Source: a virus (lineage: Duplodnaviria; Heunggongvirae; Uroviricota; Caudoviricetes). From it: DNA of 34,347 nucleotides. Both the position numbers and the translations under genes were made by a program. Below the pieces are notes generated by a model, which was not told the DNA's origin, ran no database searches, and worked only from the letters and a program-made list of their open reading frames with translations. The DNA is taken from the IMG/VR virus record IMGVR_UViG_2693429686_000003; one strand, given 5' to 3'. This document shows positions 219 through 34,347 of this stretch, in pieces. Position 1 is the stretch's first letter; each line of letters begins with the position of its first letter.

Positions 219-644
219 TTAGTGCGGAAATATTTGTGTAGTGTTCTGTATGTTCTCAGTAAAGAGTAATGAATTATCAAAGGTATAGTAATACCTTTTG
301 TTTTCGTGGATATTTGTAATCCATCTGAAAACCCCTGCTGTAGCAAGATTTTTCCTGTATTCGTAAAATGATAACTCTCCTGATTTGAATCCTTTTAAGG
401 TGGCTTCTATAAGGCATTTATTTTTTGAAAATCTTACATTTACAACCTTACCCTGTCCTTTTATTAAAACCGTATTATCGTTTTCAAGAACAAGATGAAT
501 ATTCTCTGTGGCTAAATAGTAAATGTAATGTGAGACATTGTGACGTTTTAGTTCAGAATAAAACCAGTGATAGTTTAAATTATTTCGCACTTTATCGAAT
601 ATTTGTTTAAAAATGGCAACCTGAGCCATTGTAGTACCTTCCAT
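219..644 (-). CDS. AT-rich prophage accessory protein of unknown function, possibly DUF1398 (YbcV/YdfO-like); true start may be the second Met at 629
   Basis: 141-aa ORF in the supplied track; visibly AT-rich against GC-rich structural genes; GGAAGG-like RBS before the internal Met at 629; family assignment is from memory of K-12 cryptic prophage genes and is unverified. Confidence 0.5.
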
Positions 645-16623: not shown

Positions 16624-19152
<2,529 letters not shown>

Positions 19153-19196
19153 NTGAGGTGTACTGGCAATAGCGGACACTACCATTTGTTCTTTTT

Positions 19197-20015
19197 TTAA
19201 GCAGCCATCTGATGATATTTTTCCCTGAAGGCTGCCGGGGAGATATTCCCCAGACGAGAGTGACGACGCTGACGATTGTAGAAAATCTCAATGTATTCCC
19301 GTATTACTGAGATGGCTTCATCCCGGTTATTAAAACGATAGTGGCTCAGGCTCTCATTTTTCAGCGTTCCCCAGAAGCTTTCCATCGGAGCGTTGTCGTA
19401 ACAGTTACCTTTACGCGACATTGATGTTTTCAGACCAGACTGCTCCTGTATGACCCGGTAATCGTATGCGCAGTACTGTGAACCTCGATCAGAGTGGTGG
19501 ATTAGCCCGGCAGGTGGGCGCTGGCTCCTGAGCGCCATAAACAGGGCTTTACCTGTCAGCTCTTTTGTCATGCGCTCTCCCATGGCGTAGCCGACAATTT
19601 CGCACGTATAAACATCTTTGATGCCAGCGAGGTACAACCATCCCTCCTGTGTGGCAACATACGTCAGGTCCGCCACCCAGACCTGATTTGGTGCTGTAGG
19701 AGCGAACGTCTGGTTCAGCAGATTTGGCGCAACTGGCAGATTGTGGTTCGAGTTCGTAGTCGCTCTGAACTTGCGTTTCTGCTTACAGCGTAGCCTTAGC
19801 TCCTTACGAAGACGTGCCAGTCGGTCACGACCAACGATGATGCCATTCTCTGCCAGCTCCGTCTGGAGCCGCCGGGTTCCATATGTTTCGCGAGTGCGGA
19901 TATGTGCCACCTTAATCTCCAGTTTTAGCCGCTCATCACTTTGTTTTCTGTCTGAGGGTTCATGCTGTACCCAGTTGTAATAACCGCTCCTGGATACACC
20001 AAATACCTGACACAT
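19197..20015 (-). CDS. IS3-family transposase OrfB (DDE integrase domain); made in vivo as an OrfAB fusion
   Basis: 272-aa ORF with the recognisable IS3-family catalytic region (…VWVADLTYV…HSDRGSQY…GNCYDNAPMESFWGTLK…). Confidence 0.9.
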   Translation of the reverse strand: MCQVFGVSRSGYYNWVQHEPSDRKQSDERLKLEIKVAHIRTRETYGTRRLQTELAENGIIVGRDRLARLRKELRLRCKQKRKFRATTNSNHNLPVAPNLLNQTFAPTAPNQVWVADLTYVATQEGWLYLAGIKDVYTCEIVGYAMGERMTKELTGKALFMALRSQRPPAGLIHHSDRGSQYCAYDYRVIQEQSGLKTSMSRKGNCYDNAPMESFWGTLKNESLSHYRFNNRDEAISVIREYIEIFYNRQRRHSRLGNISPAAFREKYHQMAA

Positions 20016-20050
20016 CGCTTCAATGGGAAATTGTTGTCGCCATTGTTCGA

Positions 20051-20353
20051 TTAACGCGTATTTTTCAGCGACTCCTGTGCAAAATACGCTGTTGCTTTTT
20101 TTAATATATCTCGCTCAAGGCGAGCTTCATTTAACGCCTTACGCAGTTGCAGAATTTCAGATTCCAGTTCAGCCACCGTGCGGGAACCAGGAGTACCGAG
20201 CCCTTTTCTGGCGGCGGTAACCCATTGTCCTAAAGTGCCTTCAGGAAGAGATAATCGGGAAGCGCCTTCACTGATCGAAAGTTGATTTTCAGGAACCGTT
20301 CTGACAGCTTCGGCTTTGAACTCTTTAGAGTAACGTTGGGTTTTTCTGCTCAT
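20051..20353 (-). CDS. IS3-family transposase OrfA (HTH DNA-binding, leucine-zipper-like C-terminus)
   Basis: 100-aa ORF MSRKTQRYSKEFKAEAVRTV..., as recalled for IS600 OrfA. Confidence 0.88.
   Translation of the reverse strand: MSRKTQRYSKEFKAEAVRTVPENQLSISEGASRLSLPEGTLGQWVTAARKGLGTPGSRTVAELESEILQLRKALNEARLERDILKKATAYFAQESLKNTR
20096..20102 (-). promoter_or_regulatory. A7 slippery run (T7 on the plus strand) at the orfA 3' end: predicted -1 frameshift site for OrfAB
   Basis: The minus strand reads ...TTA AAA AAA GCA... in the orfA frame just before its stop; A6G/A7 motifs are the usual IS3-family frameshift signal. Confidence 0.6.
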
Positions 20354-20417
20354 TATTAGCTCCTTCTGATGCCATTCTATTTCAGGAAGGAGTGTCCGTT
20401 AAACTCAGGCTACCTCA

Positions 20418-20757
20418 GTCTGCTGATTTGAGTCGCTACAGTGGCACGGTGGTTAACCGTCCGACGTTTTTTGCTTTTGCAAAAGGCGCGGGTGTGATGG
20501 GGGAAGCGGGACCTGAAGCCATTCTGCCACTGCGTCGCGGTGCTGATGGTAAGCTGGGGGGTGTGGCGGATACTGGTGGTTCAGGCATGGTGATGTTTGC
20601 CCCGCAGTACAACATTGAGATCAATAACGATGGCACGAACGGGCAGATAGGTCCGGCTGCCCTGAAGGTGGTTTATGACCTCGGGAAAAAAGCGGCCGCG
20701 GACTTTATGCAACAGCAGGCCCGTGATGGTGGCCGGTTAAGTGGAGCATACCGGTAA
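20418..20757 (+). pseudogene. H: 3' fragment (about 110 codons) of a divergent tape-measure gene H, fused to the IS end
   Basis: The translation aligns with the C-terminus of gpH (…NNDGTNGQIGPAALKVVYD…RDGG…) but differs from H copy 1; its stop overlaps the M2 start as H/M do. Confidence 0.8.
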
Positions 20758-23141: not shown

Positions 23142-26100
23142 ATGGGTAAAGGCAGCAGTAAGGGGCATACCCCGCGCGAAGCGAAGGACAACCTGAAATC
23201 CACGCAGTTGCTGAGTGTGATTGATGCCATCAGCGAAGGGCCGGTTGACGGTCCGGTGGATGGATTAAAAAGCGTGCTGCTGAACGGTACGCCGGTCCTG
23301 GACAGCGAGGGGAAGACAAACTTTTCCGGTGTTACGGTGGTGTTCCGTGCAGGTGAGCAGGAGCAGACACCGCCGGAGGGTTTTGAATCCTCCGGCTCCG
23401 AGACGGTGCTGGGTACGGAAGTGAAATATGACACGCCGATCACCCGGACCATCACGTCGGCAAACATCGACCGTCTGCGCCTGACCTTCGGTGTGCAGGC
23501 ACTGGTGGAAACCACCTCAAAGGGTGACCGGAATCCGTCGGAAGTCCGCCTGCTGGTTCAGATACAGCGTAACGGTGGCTGGGTGACGGAAAAAGACATC
23601 ACCATTAAGGGCAAAACCACTTCGCAGTATCTGGCCTCGGTGGTGGTGGGTAACCTGCCGCCGCGCCCGTTTAATATCCGGATGCGCAGGATGACACCGG
23701 ACAGCACCACAGACCAGCTGCAGAACAAAACGCTCTGGTCGTCGTACACCGAAATCATCGATGTGAAACAGTGCTACCCGAACACGGCGCTGGTCGGCGT
23801 GCAGGTGGATTCAGAGCAGTTCGGTAACCAGCAGGTGAGTCGCAATTATCATCTTCGCGGGCGCATTCTGCAGGTGCCGTCGAACTATAACCCGCAGACG
23901 CGGCAATACAGCGGTATCTGGGACGGAACGCTTAAGCCAGCATACAGCAACAACATGGCCTGGTGTCTGTGGGACATGCTCACTCATCCGCGCTACGGCA
24001 TGGGGAAACGTCTTGGTGCGGCAGATGTGGACAAATGGGCGCTGTATGTCATCGGCCAGTACTGCGACCAGTCAGTGACGGACGGATTTGGCGGCACGGA
24101 GCCGCGCATCACCTGTAACTCTTACCTGACCACACAGCGTAAGGCGTGGGATGTTCTCAGTGATTTCTGCTCGGCGATGCGCTGTATGCCGGTATGGAAC
24201 GGACAGATGCTGACGTTCGTGCAGGACCGACCGTCGGATAAGGTGTGGACCTATAACCGCAGTAATGTGGTGATGCCGGACGATGGCGCGCCGTTCCGCT
24301 ACAGCTTCAGCGCCCTGAAGGACCGCCATAATGCCGTTGAGGTGAACTGGATTGACCCAGATAACGGCTGGGAGACGGCGACAGAGCTTGTGGAGGATAC
24401 GCAGGCCATTGCCCGTTACGGTCGTAATGTCACGAAGATGGATGCCTTTGGCTGTACCAGCCGGGGGCAGGCACACCGAGCCGGGCTGTGGCTGATTAAA
24501 ACGGAACTGCTGGAGACGCAGACCGTGGATTTCAGCGTGGGTGCTGAAGGGCTTCGTCATGTACCGGGCGATGTCATTGAAATCTGCGATGATGATTATG
24601 CCGGTATCAGCACCGGTGGTCGCGTACTGGCGGTGAACAGCCAGACCCGGACGCTGACGCTCGACCGTGAAATCACGCTGCCGTCCTCCGGTACCACGCT
24701 GATAAGCCTGGTTGACGGAAGTGGCAATCCGGTCAGCGTGGAGGTCCAGTCCGTCACCGACGGCGTGAAGGTGAAAGTGAGCCGGGTTCCTGACGGCGTT
24801 GCAGAATACAGCGTGTGGGGGCTGAAGCTGCCGACGCTGCGCCAGCGTCTGTTCCGCTGCGTGAGTATCCGTGAGAACGACGACGGCACGTATGCCATCA
24901 CCGCCGTGCAGCATGTGCCGGAAAAAGAGGCCATCGTGGATAACGGGGCACACTTTGACGGTGACCGGCGCGGCACGGTGAATGGTGTCACGCCGCCAGC
25001 GGTGCAGCATCTGACCGCCGAAGTCACCGCAGACAGCGGGGAATATCAGGTGCTGGCGCGATGGGACACGCCGAAGGTGGTGAAGGGTGTGAGCTTCCTG
25101 CTTCGCCTGACCGTGGCAGCGGACGACGGCAGTGAGCGGCTGGTCAGCACAGCCAGGACGACGGAAACCACATACCGCTTCAGGCAGCTGGCGCTGGGGA
25201 ATTACAGTCTGACAGTCCGGGCGGTAAATGCCCGGGGGCAGCAGGGCGATCCGGCGTCGGTATCGTTCCGGATTGCGGCACCGGCAGCGCCTGTCACTAT
25301 TGAACTGATACCGGGGTATTTTCAGATAACGGCGGTCCCGAAACTGGCTGTATATGACCCGACGGTGCAGTTTGAGTTCTGGTTTTCGGAAAAGCGGATT
25401 GCGGATATCAGGCAGGTTGAAACCACAGCACGCTATCTTGGCACGGCGCTGTACTGGATAGCCGCCAGTATCAATATCAGGCCGGGCCATGATTATTATT
25501 TTTACGTTCGCAGTGTGAACACCGTTGGCAAATCGGCATTTGTGGAGGCCATCGGTCGGGCGAGCGATGATGCAGAAGGTTATCTGAATTTTTATAAAGG
25601 GTTGATCAATAAAACGCATCTCGGCAAGGAGTTGTGGACGCAGATTGATAACGGTCAGCTTGCGCCGGACCTGACTGAAATCAGGACGTCCATTACGAAT
25701 GTCAGCAATGAAATCACGCAAACCGTCAATAAAAAACTGGAAAATCAGAGTGCTGCAATCCAGCAGATACAGAAAGTTCAGGTTGATACAAATAATAACC
25801 TGAACAGCATGTGGGCTGTGAAGCTGCAACAGATGAAGGACGGACGCCTTTATATTGCGGGTATCGGTGCCGGTATTGAGAATACGCCAGCAGGAATGCA
25901 GAGTCAGGTGCTGCTGGCGGCAGACAGGATTGCGATGATTAATCCTGCGAATGGCAACACAAAGCCGATGTTTGTTGGTCAGGGCGATCAGATATTCATG
26001 AACGACGTGTTCCTGAAATGCCTGACGGCTCCGACCATTACCAGCGGCGGTAATCCTCCGGCATTTTCCCTGACACCTGGCGGACGGCTGACGGCGAAAA

Positions 26101-26621
26101 ATGCCGATATCAGCGGTAACGTGAACGCGAACTCCGGGACGCTCAACAACGTCACGATTAATAAGAACTGTCGGGTTCTGGGAAAATTGTCCGCGAACCA
26201 GATTGAAGGCGATCTCGTTAAAACAGTGGGCAAACCTTTCCCACGGGACTCCCGGGCACCGGAGAGGTGGCCATCAGGGACCATTACCGTCAGGGTTTAT
26301 GACGATCAGCCGTTTGATCGGCAAATTGTTATTCCCGCGGTGGCGTTTCGCGGTGCTAAACATGAGCGGAAGAATAACAATATTTATTCGTCATGCCGCC
26401 TGATAGTGAAGAAAAACGGTGCTGAAATTTATAACCGAACGACCCTGGATAATACGCTGATATATACGGGTGTTATTGATATGCCTGCCGGTCACGGTCA
26501 CATGACGCTGGAGTTTTCTGTATCGGCATGGCTGGTAAATGGCTGGTATCCCACAGCAAGTATCAGCGATTTGCTGGTTGTGGTGATGAAGAAAGCCACT
26601 GCAGGCATCACGATTAGCTGA
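23142..26621 (+). CDS. J: Central tail fibre/host-specificity protein gpJ (copy 2, intact, 1159 aa)
   Basis: Full-length ORF collinear with lambda gpJ (1132 aa); the N-terminal ~840 residues are almost identical to J copy 1. Confidence 0.96.
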
Positions 26622-26688: not shown

Positions 26689-27288
26689 ATGCGTAAAGTT
26701 TGTGCAGCCATTTTGTCCGCAGCCATTTGCCTGGCCGTATCCGGTGCGCCTGCATGGGCGTCTGAACATCAGTCCACGCTGAGCGCCGGGTATCTTCAGA
26801 CCCATACTGATATGCCAGGCAGCGATGACCTGAAGGGCATTAACGTGAAATACCGTTATGAGTTTACGGACACGCTGGGGCTGATTACGTCATTCAGTTA
26901 TGCCAACGCTGAAGATGAGCAAAAAACGCATTACAGCGATACCCGCTGGCATGAGGATTCCGTGCGTAACCGCTGGTTCAGCGTGATGGCGGGGCCGTCT
27001 GTGCGCGTGAATGAATGGTTCAGCGCGTATGCGATGGCGGGCGTGGCTTACAGCCGTGTGTCGACCTTCTCCGGGGATTATCTCCGCGTAACTGACAACA
27101 AGGGGAAAACGCACGATGTGCTGACCGGAAGTGATGGCGGTCGCCACAGCAACACGTCTCTGGCGTGGGGGGCTGGCGTGCAGTTTAACCCGACCGAATC
27201 CGTGGCCATTGACCTTGCTTATGAAGGTTCCGGCAGTGGTGACTGGCGCACTGACGGTTTCATCGTGGGTGTCGGTTATAAGTTCTGA
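26689..27288 (+). CDS. lom: Outer-membrane beta-barrel protein Lom (Ail/Lom family), copy 1, intact
   Basis: 199-aa ORF with signal peptide (MRKVCAAILSAAICLAVSGAPAWA) and a C-terminal aromatic residue; lambda Lom-like. Confidence 0.93.
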   Translation: MRKVCAAILSAAICLAVSGAPAWASEHQSTLSAGYLQTHTDMPGSDDLKGINVKYRYEFTDTLGLITSFSYANAEDEQKTHYSDTRWHEDSVRNRWFSVMAGPSVRVNEWFSAYAMAGVAYSRVSTFSGDYLRVTDNKGKTHDVLTGSDGGRHSNTSLAWGAGVQFNPTESVAIDLAYEGSGSGDWRTDGFIVGVGYKF

Positions 27289-27314
27289 TTAGCCAGGTAA
27301 CACAGTGTTATGAC

Positions 27315-27340
27315 TGCCCGCTGGTTCAGGCGGGCTTTTT
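27315..27340 (+). terminator. Terminator-like hairpin after lom copy 1 (gcccgc-tggttcag-gcgggc + T5)
   Basis: Inverted repeat plus T-run directly after the lom stop. Confidence 0.55.
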
Positions 27341-27351
27341 GTGGGGTGAAT

Positions 27352-27678
27352 ATGGCAGTAAAGATTTCAGGTGTACTGAAAGATGGGGCGGGTAAACCTG
27401 TCGTAAATTGTGCGATTGAACTGCGGGCCAGAAGAACCAGTCCGACCGTTGTGGCACACGTTGTTGCCACTTGCGTGACGGACAATAACGGTGCTTATGT
27501 GATTGAGGCTGAGCCGGGGTATTACGAGGTTGCGCTTCACTGTAACGGCTGGCAGCCAACCCGTGTCGGGGATATTGATGTGGCACCGACTGATGCACCG
27601 GGGACACTGAACGCGTTTCTGAATGCACCAAAGGATGGTGATTTACGTCCGGAGGTGATGAAGTGTCAGCGCCAGTGA
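27352..27678 (+). pseudogene. stf: 5' fragment of a side tail fibre gene (stf allele B, about 104 codons), cut by the IS21-like end
   Basis: [17 protein letters not shown]... matches the conserved Stf N-terminus and diverges from the full stf at 29903; after …DLRPEVMK the sequence becomes the IS end (TGTCAGCGCCAGTG…). Confidence 0.8.
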
Positions 27679-27907
27679 TATAAGACGGTAATTCGCCATT
27701 TGGATTGTCCGCTCCACCCAACATGTTGTTTCCTTAAGGTTCTCACACCAGAAAGGACATCAACATGCTGAGCAGAGAGGACTTTTACATGATAAAGCAA
27801 ATGCGCCAGCAGGGCGCGTACATCGTCGATATTGCGACTCAGATTGGTTGCTCTGAACGGACGGTCAGACGCTACCTCAAATACCCTGAACCGCCAGCCA
27901 GAAAGAC
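27664..27907 (+). mobile_element. istA: Left end of an IS21-family element, including the first 47 codons of istA (27765-27907), truncated by the scaffold gap
   Basis: The terminus starts TGTCAGC…; ORF MLSREDFYMIKQMRQQGAYIVDIATQIGCSERTVRRYLKYPEPPARK matches my recollection of the IS21 IstA HTH N-terminus; it runs into NNNN. Confidence 0.6.
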
Positions 27908-27911
27908 NNNN
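27908..27911. other. Assembly gap (NNNN), a scaffold join
   Basis: Four ambiguous bases; sequence context changes abruptly from the IS21 istA 5' end to mid-J. Confidence 0.95.
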
Positions 27912-29251
27912 TTGAGCTGACGCCGGGCTATTTTCAGATAACCGCCACGCCGCATCTTGCGGTTTATGATCCGACGGTACAGTTTGAGTTCTGGTTCTCG
28001 GAAAAGCGGATTGCGGATATCAGGCAGGTTGAAACCACAGCACGCTATCTTGGCACGGCGCTGTACTGGATAGCCGCCAGTATCAATATCAAACCGGGCC
28101 ATGATTATTACTTTTATATCCGCAGTGTGAACACCGTTGGCAAATCGGCATTCGTGGAGGCTGTTGGTCAGCCGAGTGATGATGCATCCGGTTATCTGGA
28201 TTTTTTCAAAGGCGAGATAGGGAAAACCCATCTGGCTCAGGAGCTGTGGACGCAGATTGATAACGGTCAGCTTGCGCCTGACCTGGCTGAAATCAGGACG
28301 TCCATTACGGATGTCAGCAATGAAATCACGCAGACCGTCAATAAGAAACTGGAAGACCAGAGTGCGGCAATTCAGCAGATACAGAAGGTTCAGGTTGATA
28401 CAAATAATAACCTGAACAGCATGTGGGCTGTGAAGCTGCAGCAGATGCAGGACGGACGCCTTTATATCGCGGGTATTGGTGCCGGTATTGAGAACACCCC
28501 TGACGGCATGCAGAGTCAGGTGCTGCTGGCGGCGGACAGGATTGCGATGGTTAATCCTGCGAATGGCAACACAAAACCGATGTTTGTTGGTCAGGGCGAT
28601 CAGATATTCATGAACGACGTGTTCCTGAAACGCCTGACGGCCCCCACCATTACCAGCGGTGGAAATCCATCGGCATTTTCCCTGACTCCGGACGGAAAGC
28701 TGACCGCTAAAAATGCGGATATCAGTGGCAGTGTGAATGCGAACGCCGGGACGCTCAACAATGTCACGGTAAATGAAAACTGTACGATTAAGGGCATGCT
28801 GGAGGCGACTCAGGTCAGAGGTGACTTCGTTAAAGCTGTATCCAAATCATTTCCGAAACAGGCTGGTACGTGGGGTAACACGGAAACACCAAACGGGACG
28901 GTTACAGTCACCATAAGCGATGATCATAACTTTGACCGCCAGATTATTATTCCGCCCATTATTTTTAACGGTATAGCGTATGACGATCCGGGGAGCGGAA
29001 ATAACCCAGGAGGCACGCGATACACGGGTTATGGTTTTGAAGTTCGCAAAAACGGCGTATTAATCGCATCCAGAGAAACTAAAGGTGCCATTCCCGGTAG
29101 TTACAGTGCAGTTATTGATATGCCTAGTGGTGGTGGTAGCGTCACTCTGGAGTTTAAGATTTTCCAGAAAGGCAATCAGGGGGCAGGCAATATCACCGAC
29201 TGTACGGTGATTGTGACCAAAAAAGCGGCTTCCGGCATCAGTATTCGTTGA
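27912..29251 (+). pseudogene. J: 3' portion of J (allele 1), residues about 775 to the end, with a C-terminal domain unlike J copy 2
   Basis: 27912-28118 is identical to 18946-19152 (end of truncated J copy 1) and continues in the J frame (ORF 28127-29251 lies within it); the last ~145 residues differ from J copy 2. Confidence 0.85.
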
Positions 29252-29273
29252 AATATTTATAACCCCAATAAAT

Positions 29274-29299
29274 GGCGTCAGGAATGACGCCTTTTTTAT
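29274..29299 (+). terminator. Rho-independent terminator after J allele 1 (ggcgtca-ggaa-tgacgcc + T6)
   Basis: Perfect 7-bp stem and T-run; the stem sequence differs from the 26641 terminator but keeps pairing; downstream sequence is identical. Confidence 0.7.
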
Positions 29300-29321
29300 T
29301 GCAGAAAAGCGAGAGGTAATT

Positions 29322-29838
29322 ATGCGTAAAGTTTGTGCAGCCATTTTGTCCGCAGCCATTTGCCTGGCCGTATCCGGTGCGCCTGCATGGGCGTCTGAAC
29401 ATCAGTCCACGCTGAGCGCGGGGTATCTTCATGCCCGGACCAACGTTCCCGGCAGTGATGATCTGAACGGGATTAACGTGAAATACCGTTATGAGTTTAC
29501 GGATACGCTGGGGCTGGTGACGTCATTCAGCTATGCAGGAGACAAGAATCGCCAGCTGACCCGTTACAGCGATACCCGCTGGCATGAAGATTCCGTGCGT
29601 AACCGCTGGTTCAGCGTGATGGCGGGGCCGTCTGTGCGCGTGAATGAATGGTTCAGCGCGTATGCGATGGCGGGTGTGGCTTACAGCCGTGTGTCGACTT
29701 TTTCCGGGGATTATATCCGCGTAACTGACAATAAGGGGAAAACGCACGATGTGCTGACCGGAAGTGATGACGGTCGCCACAGCAACACGTCTCTGGCGCA
29801 CTGACGGTTTCATCGTGGGTGTCGGTTATAAATTCTGA
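29322..29838 (+). pseudogene. lom: lom copy 2 with an 83-bp internal deletion giving a frameshift and premature stop at 29804
   Basis: Identical to lom copy 1 in most of its length; sequence jumps from …acgtctctggcg to cactgacggtttcatcg…, omitting 83 bp present in copy 1, with the 6-bp repeat ctggcg at both deletion borders. Confidence 0.75.
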
Positions 29839-29865
29839 TTAGCCAGGTAACACAGTGTTATGACA

Positions 29866-29891
29866 GCCCGCCGGTTCAGGCGGGCTTTTTT
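29866..29891 (+). terminator. Rho-independent terminator after lom copy 2 (gcccgcc-ggttca-ggcgggc + T6)
   Basis: Perfect 7-bp stem and T-run. Confidence 0.65.
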
Positions 29892-29902
29892 GTGGGGTGA
29901 AT

Positions 29903-32900
29903 ATGGCAGTAAAGATTTCAGGTGTACTGAAAGACGGCACAGGAAAACCGGTACAGAACTGCACAATCCAGCTGAAAGCAAAACGTAACAGCACCACGGT
30001 GGTGGTGAACACGCTGGCCTCAGAAAATCCGGATGAAGCCGGGCGTTACAGCATGGACGTTGAGTACGGTCAGTACAGCGTTATTCTGTTGGTGGAAGGA
30101 TTCCCGCCGTCACATGCCGGGACCATCACCGTGTATGAAGATTCCCGACCCGGTACGCTGAATGATTTTCTCGGTGCCATGACGGAGGATGATGCCCGTC
30201 CGGAGGCACTGCGCCGTTTTGAGCTGATGGTGGAAGAGGTGGCGCGTAACGCGTCCGCGGTGGCACAGAACACGGCAGCCGCGAAGAAATCAGCCAGCGA
30301 TGCCAGCACATCAGCCCGTGAGGCGGCAACCCATGCGACTGATGCTGCAGATTCAGCACGTGCAGCCAGCACGTCAGCCGGACAGGCCGCTTCGTCGGCT
30401 CAGTCAGCGTCTTCCAGCGCAGGAACGGCATCAACAAAGGCCACTGAAGCCTCAAAAAGTGCTGCCGCTGCAGAGTCCTCAAAAAGCGCGGCGGCTACCA
30501 GTGCCGGTGCGGCGAAAACGTTAGAAACGAATGCGGCAGCGTCACAACAATCAGCAGCCACTTCTGCATCCACCGCGACCACGAAAGCGTCAGAAGCTGC
30601 CACCTCAGCCCGGGATGCGTCGGCTTCAAAAGAGGCGGCAAAATCATCAGAAACGAACGCATCATCAAGCGCCAGTAGCGCAGCTTCCTCGGCGACGGCG
30701 GCTGCAAATTCTGCGAAGGCGGCCAAAACGTCCGAGACGAACGCCAGGTCTTCTGAAACGGCAGCGGGACAGAGTGCCTCAGCTGCGGCAGGCTCAAAAA
30801 CAGCGGCTGCGTCGTCTGCCAGCGCCGCGTCAACAAGTGCCGGGCAGGCCTCAGCCAGTGCCACCGCCGCCGGAAAATCGGCAGAAAGCGCCGCATCATC
30901 CGCTTCAACAGCCACAACGAAGGCTGGCGAAGCCACTGAGCAGGCCACGGCAGCAGCGAGGTCAGCTTCCGCAGCGAAGACATCCGAAACGAACGCGAAA
31001 GCGTCGGAAACCCGTGCAGAATCCTCAAAAACGGCTGCCGCATCGTCCGCCAGTTCGGCGGCGTCATCGGCATCATCGGCGTCTGCTTCAAAAGATGAGG
31101 CGACCAGACAGGCGTCAGCAGCGAAGGGCAGCGCCACGACGGCATCCACGAAGGCGACAGAGGCTGCTGGTAGTGCGACGGCAGCAGCTCAGAGCAAAAG
31201 TACGGCGGAATCTGCAGCAACGCGCGCTGAGACAGCGGCAAAACGGGCAGAGGATATTGCATCCGCCGTGGCGCTTGAGGATGCGAGCACGACGAAAAAG
31301 GGGATAGTACAGCTCAGTAGTGCGACTAACAGCACTTCCGAGTCACTGGCGGCAACACCAAAAGCCGTTAAGGCCGCGTATGACCTGGCTAACGGGAAAT
31401 ACACCGCACAGGATGCAACGACAGCACAGAAAGGGATAATCCAGCTAAGCAGCGCGACCAACAGCACGTCTGAAACGCTGGCGGCAACGCCAAAGGCAGT
31501 AAAAGCAGCCAATGACAATGCTGAGAAACGTCTGCAGAAAGATCAGAACGGTGCGGATATCCCTGGCAAAGACACCTTTACGAAAAATATTGGTGCCTGC
31601 CGTGCCTTCGGTGGGTCAGTAAGCACAACAACAGGAAACTGGACGACTGCACAGTTTATCGAGTGGCTGGATTCTCAGGGAGCATTTAACCATCCATACT
31701 GGATGTGCAAGGGTTCCTGGTCTTATGGCAATAATAAAATCATTACTGATACTGGCTGCGGTAATATTCATCTCGCCGGAGCTGTCATTGAAGTAATGGG
31801 GATAAAGTCAGCGATGACGATCCGCATTACCACTCCGACCACATCCAGCGGTGGCGGAACAACCAACGCCCAGTTTACCTATATTAATCACGGAACAGAT
31901 TATTCACCTGGCTGGCGAAGGGACTATAACTCCAGAAATAAGCCAACGGCATCAGAGATCGGGGCGCTACCGTCAGGTGGAACAGCAGTATCATCAGTTA
32001 ATCTGGCTTCAAAAGGTCGGGTAGCCGCGCTGACAGACAATACGCAGGGGGCAGCAGGTCTTGAGTTATACGAGGTGTATAACAACGGATATCCAACAGC
32101 GTATGGAAATATCATTCACCTGAAAGGGATGACAGCCGTTGGCGAAGGTGAGTTACTCATCGGCTGGAGTGGTACAAGCGGTGCTCATGCTCCGGCATTT
32201 ATTCGTTCACGACGGGATACGACCGACGCAAACTGGTCGCCGTGGGCGCAGCTTTACACCTCGGCTCATCCTCCTGCAGAGTTTTATCCAGTCGGTGCAC
32301 CAATCCCGTGGCCATCAGATACCGTTCCGTCTGGTTATGCCCTGATGCAGGGGCAGACTTTTGACAAATCTGCTTACCCGAAACTTGCAGCCGCTTATCC
32401 GTCAGGCGTGATCCCTGATATGCGTGGCTGGACGATTAAGGGCAAGCCCGCCAGTGGTCGTGCCGTATTGTCTCAGGAACAGGATGGCATTAAATCGCAC
32501 ACCCACAGCGCCAGCGCATCCAGTACGGATTTGGGGACGAAAACCACATCGTCGTTTGATTACGGCACTAAATCCACGAATAACACCGGGGCGCATACGC
32601 ACAGTCTGAGCGGCTCTACAAGTTCAGCTGGGGCCCACCAACATAGTCAGACTGGGCCCAGAACGAATAGCGGGAGTCAACCTACTGGAATGTTTCCGGC
32701 AGGGAGTACTCAAGTTAGCGGGACTAATCAGGTTGGTATCAGTGGCTCATTAACCAGTGGCACCTCCCAATGGGTAGGTAAATCATCTTCAGAAGGAAAC
32801 CATACACACTCACTGTCCGGCACAGCAGCATCTGCGGGTGCACACGCGCATACTGTCGGTATTGGTGCTCATACGCACTCTGTTGCGATTGGTTCACATG

Positions 32901-32986
32901 GACACACCATCACCGTTAACGCTGCTGGTAACGCGGAAAACACCGTCAAAAACATCGCATTTAACTATATTGTGAGGCTCGCATAA
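29903..32986 (+). CDS. stf: Side tail fibre protein Stf: conserved N-terminus, long Ala/Ser/Thr-rich repeat region, two phage-tail-fibre repeats (…[14 protein letters not shown](S/T)[11 protein letters not shown]…), His-rich C-terminus
   Basis: N-terminus ([30 protein letters not shown]…) and C-terminus (…[31 protein letters not shown]) match lambda Stf; the ORF is 1029 aa from GTG 29897 against 774 aa in lambda. Confidence 0.93.
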
Positions 32987-33567
32987 TGGCATTCAGAATG
33001 AGTGAACAAGCACGGACCATAAAAATTTATAACCTGCTGGCCGGAACTAATGAATTTATTGGTGAAGGTGACGCATATATTCCGCCTCATACAGGTCTGC
33101 CTGCAAACAGTACCGATATTGCACCGCCAGATATTCCGGCTGGTTTCGTGGCTGTTTTCAACAGTGATGAGTCATCGTGGCATCTCGTTGAAGATCATCG
33201 GGGTAAAACGGTTTATGACGTGGCTTCCGGCGACGCGTTATTTATTTCTGAACTCGGCTCATTACCGGAAAATGTCACCTGGTTATCCCCGGAAGGGGAG
33301 TTTCAGAAGTGGAACGGCACAGCCTGGGTGAAGGATACGGAAGCAGAAAAACTGTTCCGGATCCGGGAGGCGGAAGAAACAAAAAACAGCCTGATGCAGG
33401 TAGCCAGTGAGCATATAGCGCCGCTTCAGGATGCTGTGGATCTGGAGATCGCAACGGAGAAAGAAACCTTGTTGCTGGAAGCTTGGAAAAAGTATCGGGT
33501 GTTGCTGAACCGTGTTGATACATCAACTGCACCGGATATTGAATGGCCAGTAGCACCTATAGGGTAA
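32986..33567 (+). CDS. tfa: Tail fibre assembly chaperone Tfa
   Basis: 193-aa ORF matching lambda Tfa ([61 protein letters not shown]…); start overlaps the stf stop (TAATG). Confidence 0.94.
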
Positions 33568-33650
33568 ATTCGTAATGATTACCTAAATACGTTATTCTTT
33601 TGTTAAAAAAGTGATTTTGCTATAGGTAGGGAGTATGTTCTTGGATTAAG

Positions 33651-33684
33651 AATAAAAAATCGCCATGAAAGAGCTTCATGGCGA
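33651..33684 (-). terminator. Rho-independent terminator on the minus strand (10-bp perfect stem tcgccatgaa/ttcatggcga, 5-nt loop, then TTTTTTATT on the minus strand)
   Basis: Plus-strand aataaaaaa-tcgccatgaa-agagc-ttcatggcga; the T-run follows the hairpin only on the minus strand, so it would end a leftward transcript from the AT-rich region. Confidence 0.6.
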
Positions 33685-34316
33685 GTACATAAACGTACAA
33701 AATGTGATGAAAGTAGAGTGGCGTAAGCCACTATATTAAGATATGACAATAGCGAAGAAAAGTAAATAACATTTTATGGACGTTTAATTGTTAATTATAA
33801 AAACTAGAGTGCCCGATATTGTTTATCTTGCTTTAAAATAATGTACTCAAACCAAATTTTTGAGCTAAAAGCTCAAATAATATAAATGCAATAATAATGT
33901 TTAATAAGACAATTAGCTTGCTTTGTATTTTCATTTCGGAATACTGTTAAGTAACTTTGATGACCCTAACAATAGATCGGAATTTTCTTAGAGTCAATGG
34001 TCACTGTTTTTGCTTGCAAAGCAAATGTTTTGGTGGTTATAAGTCGTCTTAATATAGTCACGCATGCAACTTGTTCCATGCGGAGATTAAAGATTGGAAT
34101 ATAACGCGAAGATGGAATTAAATTACATTTGCAATAATTAATTTATTATTACTCAATAATTACCGATATTATTATTGTAAATTAATCATTAGAATGCAAA
34201 AAGAAATGTAACGGCAAAATAAGAGGACGATAGCTGAGAAAAAAGCGTGCTTTCCCAATCTGGGGCAAATCACGTCTGAATGACACCTGAAAACAGGTGG
34301 TAGCCTCAAGAAGGCT

Positions 34317-34347
34317 GGTGATGCTGCCAACTTACTGATTTAGTGTA
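34317..34347 (+). mobile_element. First 31 bp of an IS1 element (terminal inverted repeat GGTGATGCTGCCAACTTACTGAT…), cut by the window edge
   Basis: Exact match to the recalled IS1 terminus GGTGATGCTGCCAACTTACTGATTTAGTGTA. Confidence 0.8.

Follow-up and report, generated by a model that had tools for sequence, protein, structure and literature searches.

Gene organization of the window

The sequence analysed here (the window) is the whole contig CXBT01000039.1, 34,347 nt in length, of the S. sonnei assembly GCA_001248315.1, which is a scaffolded draft. It shares 99.9-100% identity with closed S. sonnei chromosomes, except for a lower value in the middle piece of the first J gene (18187-19152). 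The lambda-like head and tail genes of a first prophage run from Nu1 to the tape-measure gene H (853 aa) and are followed by M, L, K, I and J, the last of which begins at 16624. Upstream of Nu1, positions 1-1000 are AT-rich (GC content 0.40, compared with about 0.57 in the phage genes) and include a DUF1398 gene at 219-644 (minus strand). The 5' piece of the first J, which was called allele 1 in the preliminary description, was taken from the ORF listing (16624-18185, plus strand); it is 99.9% identical to closed S. sonnei genomes and stops at a scaffold join, a single N at 18186 with the same J stretch on both sides. The middle piece (18187-19152, plus strand) has 16 mismatches in 964 nt against the closed genomes. 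It ends at a second single-N join (19153), which separates J from the terminus of an insertion sequence. This multi-copy element of the IS3 family (19154-20417, minus strand) contains orfA (20051-20353) and orfB (19197-20015), with the Pfam domains HTH_Tnp_1 and rve.

A second set of tail genes follows, all on the plus strand. It starts with a truncated tape-measure 3' end, H' (121 aa, 20392-20757), and continues with M, L, K and I up to 23081. The next gene in the ORF listing is J copy 2 (23142-26621), an intact lambda-type tip attachment protein of 1159 aa within an IS-bounded prophage remnant. Its Pfam domains are FNIII-A_GpJ, Phage-tail_3, Ig_J, Phage_Tail_Tip and Ig_GpJ_C, and its receptor-binding domain cassette occupies 26157-26618. 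The conserved 3' flank of this cassette is lom (199 aa, 26689-27288; Pfam Ail_Lom). Behind it lie a truncated side-tail-fibre N-terminus, stf' (122 aa, 27310-27678; PF08400, profile positions 1-104 of 134), and the opening 143 nt of an istA gene of the IS21 family (27765-27907), which were recognized by sequence inspection and mark the end of a repeat-bounded contig. The istA counterparts called in other assemblies (L004, L023) run on as IS21-type transposase.

An NNNN scaffold join (27908-27911) comes next, and is followed by 1340 nt of J 3' sequence (27912-29251, plus strand) with the second receptor-binding domain cassette at 28769-29248. The 3' flank of this cassette is a truncated lom' in the ORF listing (160 aa, 29322-29804, plus strand). 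The stf gene (1029 aa, 29897-32986; phage_tail_N, Phage_fiber_2 and Collar) and the tfa gene (193 aa, 32986-33567; Caudo_TAP) of a lambda-like prophage complete the series on the same strand. The sequence from 27912 to 34347 is 100% identical to locus L015 of our collection. The position of J copy 2 (23142-26621, 1159 aa) was borne out, as was that of the 3' J fragment, which the preliminary description had placed at 28127-29251; the reading frame of the fragment is open from 27912.

Scaffold joins between two prophages

The two J sequences had been regarded as alleles. They are rather paralogous genes of two prophages that were made adjacent by scaffolding, and the two J 3' ends were not found contiguous in one element, as alleles or a tandem duplication would be. 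The 207 nt past the NNNN run (27912-28118) exactly match 18946-19152, which is the sequence just before the N at 19153. The N at 18186 is flanked on each side by 161 nt (18025-18185 and 18189-18349) of the same J stretch, with 94% identity. Merging of 16624-18185, 18350-19152 and 28119-29251 gave a 3498-nt ORF of 1165 aa without an internal stop codon, so that the 3' piece and the two 5' pieces together form an intact gene. Closed S. sonnei genomes, 53G (HE616528.1) and 75/02 (CP019689.1) among them, have a 1165-aa J that matches the merged sequence at 99.57% identity with no gaps; the alignments with gpJ genes of closed E. coli genomes were also gap-free, and the best of them reached 97.7%.

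Comparison with closed genomes, which are from other S. sonnei strains than the isolate of the window, showed that H, M, L, K, I, J, the truncated lom', stf and tfa are consecutive, with no insert. For example, in the closed chromosome CBDDMI010000001.1 the J region of the first prophage is located within 1,266,390-1,286,872, and an IS-H'-M-L-K-I-J(1159)-lom-stf'-istA' block is located within 1,941,794-1,962,159, with more IS copies around it. The two J loci of this chromosome are about 675 kb apart and belong to separate prophages; the copy 2 block of the window shares 99.8% identity with the second locus. Copy 2 J was also found on contigs of 5-10 kb in 37 other assemblies, as is expected of a repeat-bounded fragment. 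The N joins with duplicated flanks, together with the closed-genome arrangement, indicate that the tandem J layout is a scaffolding misjoin through multi-copy IS elements.

The layout might instead be real in this isolate, if an IS-mediated rearrangement had put the second tail module inside the first J and thereby produced one composite prophage. The contig was deposited in the tandem form, the joins were presumably backed by read-pair links, and S. sonnei is rich in IS copies. However, there are Ns at every junction (18186, 19153 and 27908-27911), and an exact 207-nt repeat lies at the flanks of the 8.7-kb block, a duplication that IS insertion does not make; the target duplications of IS3-family elements are 3-5 bp. 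The block also breaks off 143 nt into the IS21-family gene, with mid-J sequence directly next to it. Moreover, an uninterrupted J precedes the same truncated lom' in eight closed or large assemblies (1165 aa in seven, 1151 aa in one), and in the closed or large assemblies the copy 2 block sits elsewhere. A composite prophage is therefore extremely improbable, and a real IS insertion in J was rejected on account of the exact 207-nt duplication and the closed-genome evidence.

The preferred reading is that tail-tip genes from two different lambdoid prophages of S. sonnei are combined in the window, where the scaffolder joined them via insertion-sequence repeats, and we consider this explanation as a whole very likely. 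The first prophage is lambda-like and nearly complete (Nu1 through tfa), with a single intact 1165-aa J whose last ~155 residues are of the 434 type. The second is an IS-bounded remnant (H'-M-L-K-I-J-lom-stf'), whose intact 1159-aa J carries an end of the gpJ '1A2' or O157-prophage type. The middle piece of the first J (18187-19152, 966 nt) probably represents a blurred consensus of several J copies, since it has 16 mismatches while the flanking pieces are 99.9-100% identical to closed genomes; alternatively, it might come from a third J gene. More generally, scaffolded drafts with N-marked joins can make paralogous prophage genes look like tandem 'alleles'.

Divergence between the two J ends

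Alignment of copy 2 with the 3' J fragment confirmed the near-identity that had been noticed upstream of the divergent region: 192 of 214 residues (90%) are identical without gaps, up to and including the sequence GTLNNVT (residues 999-1005 of copy 2, nt 26136-26156; nt 28748-28768 in the fragment). Past this site, over the last ~155 residues, 64 of 151 aligned residues are identical (~42%), with 12 gap columns. The DNA comparison gave the same picture: identity is 86-97% in the upstream part of J, drops to 53-61% at about nt 26141 and stays in this range until the stop codon, and recovers to 88-96% in lom, 3' of both cassettes. The two ends had been said to diverge completely past GTLNNVT and to be unrelated. 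The breakpoint and the drop in identity stand; however, the ends can be aligned over their full length, and about 40-42% identity remains. BLASTP of the last 149 residues of one against the last 153 of the other, taken alone, gave 40% identity with an E value of 7e-31, and their global alignment scores 23 SD over 500 shuffles. The two J ends are homologous versions of one domain, which is also indicated by the profile, PDB and fold matches given below.

Further upstream (25541-25690, at about residues 820-870), both J proteins of the window have an alpha-helical shaft segment that has 28 more residues than its counterparts in lambda and lambda h434 and differs from them in sequence. It adds another mosaic boundary within J, 5' of the receptor-binding cassette.

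Identity and fold of the C-terminal domain

The divergent stretch had been taken for the gpJ receptor-binding domain, and the profile search agrees with this: both ends match the Pfam family PF12421 (Ig_GpJ_C), with 127.1 bits for copy 2 and 91.5 bits for the fragment (gathering cut-off 26.2 bits), from profile positions 1-2 to 134-135 of 135. The domain is located at the extreme C-terminus of J, after Phage_Tail_Tip (PF09327), and J itself within the M-L-K-I-J-lom gene order. Searches against the PDB gave whole-length matches for both ends. The end of copy 2 matched A8 gpJ (9wca) with an E value of 2.5e-61 and lambda gpJ (8xcj, 8iyk) with about 1e-38 to 4e-38; the corresponding values for the fragment were 1.5e-37 (9wca) and about 1e-28 (lambda gpJ).

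Fold was compared by a structure model for copy 2 and by sequence for the fragment. The AF2 model of the copy 2 end was built on a two-sequence alignment with a moderate pLDDT of 65.9, and it served for fold matching only. It is all-beta, and its best fold matches are 9wcb, 9wca, 8xck and 8xcj (TM 0.66-0.70, E values 6e-17 to 1e-13). The entry 9wcb is titled 'Open state of A8 gpJ 713 central tail fiber with OmpC G17 from E. coli EDL933'.

An alignment of ten sequences showed that the differences cluster in four variable blocks, three of which contain indels. The strands between the variable blocks are conserved and include GTxTVxxxDDxxFDRQ, NGxxI, VIDMPxGxGxxTLxF and SDxxVxVxKK. The lambda domain is Ig-like and has four loops at its bottom, which insert into the mouth of the LamB trimer on its extracellular side and set off the opening of the tail (PMC11101478). 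By analogy, the four variable blocks are probably the four receptor-contact loops described for lambda. The main text of the lambda-LamB structure paper gives loops L1-L4 without residue numbers (PMC11101478), and the matching of blocks to loops is for that reason inferred. The Ig-like C-terminal domain would be placed at the tip of a trimeric central tail fibre, with its bottom loops reaching into the mouth of a trimeric porin.

Type assignment against known gpJ variants

The lambda gpJ domain (8xcj, 8xck) belongs to the same Pfam family, PF12421, and has the same position in the protein. The preliminary description had found no match to lambda at either C-terminus, and indeed neither copy is of the lambda (LamB) type: both share 42-43% identity with the lambda domain and differ from it by indels within the variable blocks. 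Lambda gpJ binds LamB, whereas both window types are predicted to lack LamB binding. Alignment with other characterised domains, which had been proposed as a check, gave 94% identity of the fragment with h434, and 93% and 92% of copy 2 with PPompW_699 and 1A2, respectively. The two ends do not share one closest characterised domain, but correspond to two different domains with a shared receptor.

The fragment is assigned to the phage 434 (h434) type. Its last ~160 residues are 94% identical to, and of equal length with, those of the J protein of Lambda h434 imm21 (OM418627), from which it differs by about 9-10 substitutions. J of that phage is placed with its C-terminal end before lom, as in the J piece at 27912-29251. 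The end of copy 2 is only 47% identical to h434 J and is accordingly not of the 434 type. Among phage records, the fragment end is 95-99% identical to those of Evi, cdtI, Ayreon, Tritos and many Stx phages.

Copy 2 is assigned to the '1A2 / O157-prophage' type. The gpJ end named '1A2' corresponds to the J end of the O157 prophage PPompW_699 (LC567826), and copy 2 has the same length and indel pattern. About 12 of 161 positions differ between copy 2 and 1A2/PPompW_699, and five of these fall in one block, which reads HEKEHTD in 1A2/PPompW_699 and HERKNNN in copy 2. The supplement of PMC11338833 provided the 1A2 DNA as machine-read text that contains indels, and the sequence was therefore pieced together across reading frames; PPompW_699, a natural sequence free of such errors and 99% identical to 1A2, leads to the same type assignment. 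Phage records related to the copy 2 end (92-94%) include vB_EcoS-640R1, PPompW and many Stx2a phages.

The A8 gpJ (9wca, 9wcb), which is of the same family and fold, is the best PDB match for both domains. It represents a third type, with 66% identity to copy 2 and 48% to the fragment; over the types as a whole, it shares 62-66% with 1A2 ends and about 50% with 434 ends. Stx2a_JNE072859 has a J end with 99% identity to A8.

Receptor usage

The preliminary description had concluded that the two J ends probably recognise different receptors. The ends are of distinct specificity types, and this part of the claim stands; different receptors, however, are unsupported, since the closest characterised relative of each end uses OmpC. 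Phage 434 grows on K-12. When lambda carries the 434 J, its receptor is OmpC, as for phage 434 itself (PMC3509688, PMC11101478). Brodel et al. (2024) made fusions of lambda J with natural gpJ ends and used a strain lacking lamB for the screen (PMC11338833). Both A8 and 1A2 use OmpC, in the case of 1A2 in place of LamB (PMC11338833; bioRxiv 10.1101/2025.02.28.640725), and delivery of DNA by 1A2 via OmpC was demonstrated with a lamB/ompC-deleted host complemented with OmpC (PMC11338833). The two differ in the OmpC variants that they accept, as A8 works on those of MG1655 and EDL933, whereas 1A2 works on that of EDL933 only and not on that of MG1655; A8 and/or 1A2 were functional on 21 of the 23 OmpC variants tried (PMC11338833). 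By analogy with their 92-94% identical characterised relatives, we infer that both window domains would bind OmpC and that the OmpC variants accepted by each would differ; such a difference in variant range is plausible.

The earlier suggestion would have the two domains recognise different receptor proteins, for example OmpC and another porin or transporter. The domains are only about 42% identical, with indels among the variable blocks, copy 2 has a lineage-specific variable block relative to the assayed 1A2, and the OmpC binders 1A2 and A8 already differ in their OmpC variant range. Each domain, however, is 92-94% identical to one with an experimentally assigned receptor, which is OmpC both times, and the equally divergent third type, A8, has a solved complex with OmpC (9wcb), so that low identity between gpJ domains need not mean a different receptor. 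Two different receptor proteins are therefore unlikely. The 434, 1A2 and A8 ends, all of which use OmpC, teach more generally that divergent gpJ ends need not imply different receptors.

Within the preferred reading of OmpC use by both domains, a change of specificity in copy 2 can be considered. A handful of substitutions in lambda J reportedly suffices for the use of OmpF (Meyer et al. 2012), and a shift of receptor or of receptor variant in copy 2 is possible on that ground. It is conceivable, though quite unlikely, that the block HERKNNN (for HEKEHTD) is retuned to a Shigella/EIEC-specific OmpC variant or to another outer-membrane protein. If this were true, the two resident J genes would have truly different receptor specificities.

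Beyond the papers cited, the literature search returned none on the A8-OmpC structure or on systematic typing of lambdoid J ends. A 2026 preprint on genome-based prediction of phage receptors covers gpJ of Drexlerviridae and explicitly excludes lambda-type ends, and was unusable here.

Distribution and exchange of the cassettes

Among 5426 closed E. coli genomes, 3378 contain cassette DNA of the copy 2 type, at a median of two places per carrier, and 2113 contain the 434-type cassette. The number of J genes in the closed E. coli genomes has a median of 3 and reaches 15 places, so multiple J genes per genome are normal. The exact copy 2-type variant is the one seen in S. sonnei and a few closed E. 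coli genomes, such as CFSAN029787, in which a 99.8% identical cassette lies inside a complete prophage with an adjacent ipaH gene. This ipaH effector gene is frameshifted and is located just 3' of the tail fibre genes (17349-18991 of locus L014). These data suggest that the S. sonnei remnant descended from an ipaH-carrying lambdoid phage.

The pattern of two J ends is ordinary lambdoid phage mosaicism at the classical 'h' module and is already known; knowledge that lambdoid phages exchange the C-terminal host-range module of J dates back to the lambda h434 hybrids. The divergent cassette of ~460 nt, between the conserved upstream part of J and the downstream lom, corresponds to this host-range module, and its conserved flanks make it exchangeable among lambdoid phages by homologous recombination. 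Both types are characterised, and genomes of E. coli and Shigella carry them very frequently; the finding matters little past annotation.

It may also be asked whether copy 2 has any present function, or is a decaying relic in a defective remnant and uninformative on current host range. The copy 2 block has no head genes, is truncated by IS elements on both sides and contains nothing upstream of the 3' end of H; in one assembly (L025) the same J is split into products of 452 and 726 aa. Nevertheless, the 1159-aa ORF is intact in the window and identical in at least 39 blocks of the collection, and the 99.8% identical cassette of CFSAN029787 resides in a complete prophage. That copy 2 is such a relic is possible, if somewhat doubtful, and it is compatible with, rather than opposed to, the preferred explanation of two prophages joined by the scaffolder. 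Defective prophages can still pass such modules to incoming phages through recombination.

Neighbouring features

The truncated lom' at 29322-29804 encodes 160 aa, compared with the 199 aa of the lom 3' of copy 2, and this stretch has about 83 additional nt in closed E. coli genomes. The exact truncated protein was found in 1212 blocks of the collection, closed S. sonnei genomes among them, which indicates that the truncation is a real lineage feature and no assembly error. The closed genome has four copies of the IS3-family element (one of them partial), with 99.7-100% identity, no more than 20 kb from the second prophage remnant. One copy near this remnant (locus L023) interrupts an IS21-family istA gene. 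The multiplication of this element is typical of the IS expansion in S. sonnei.

The stf gene contains a low-complexity stretch rich in Ala, Ser and Thr, at roughly residues 110-470 (window positions 30200-31300). Several long ORFs that arise from this stretch are spurious, such as 30400-31149 on the minus strand and 30531-31307 on the plus strand.
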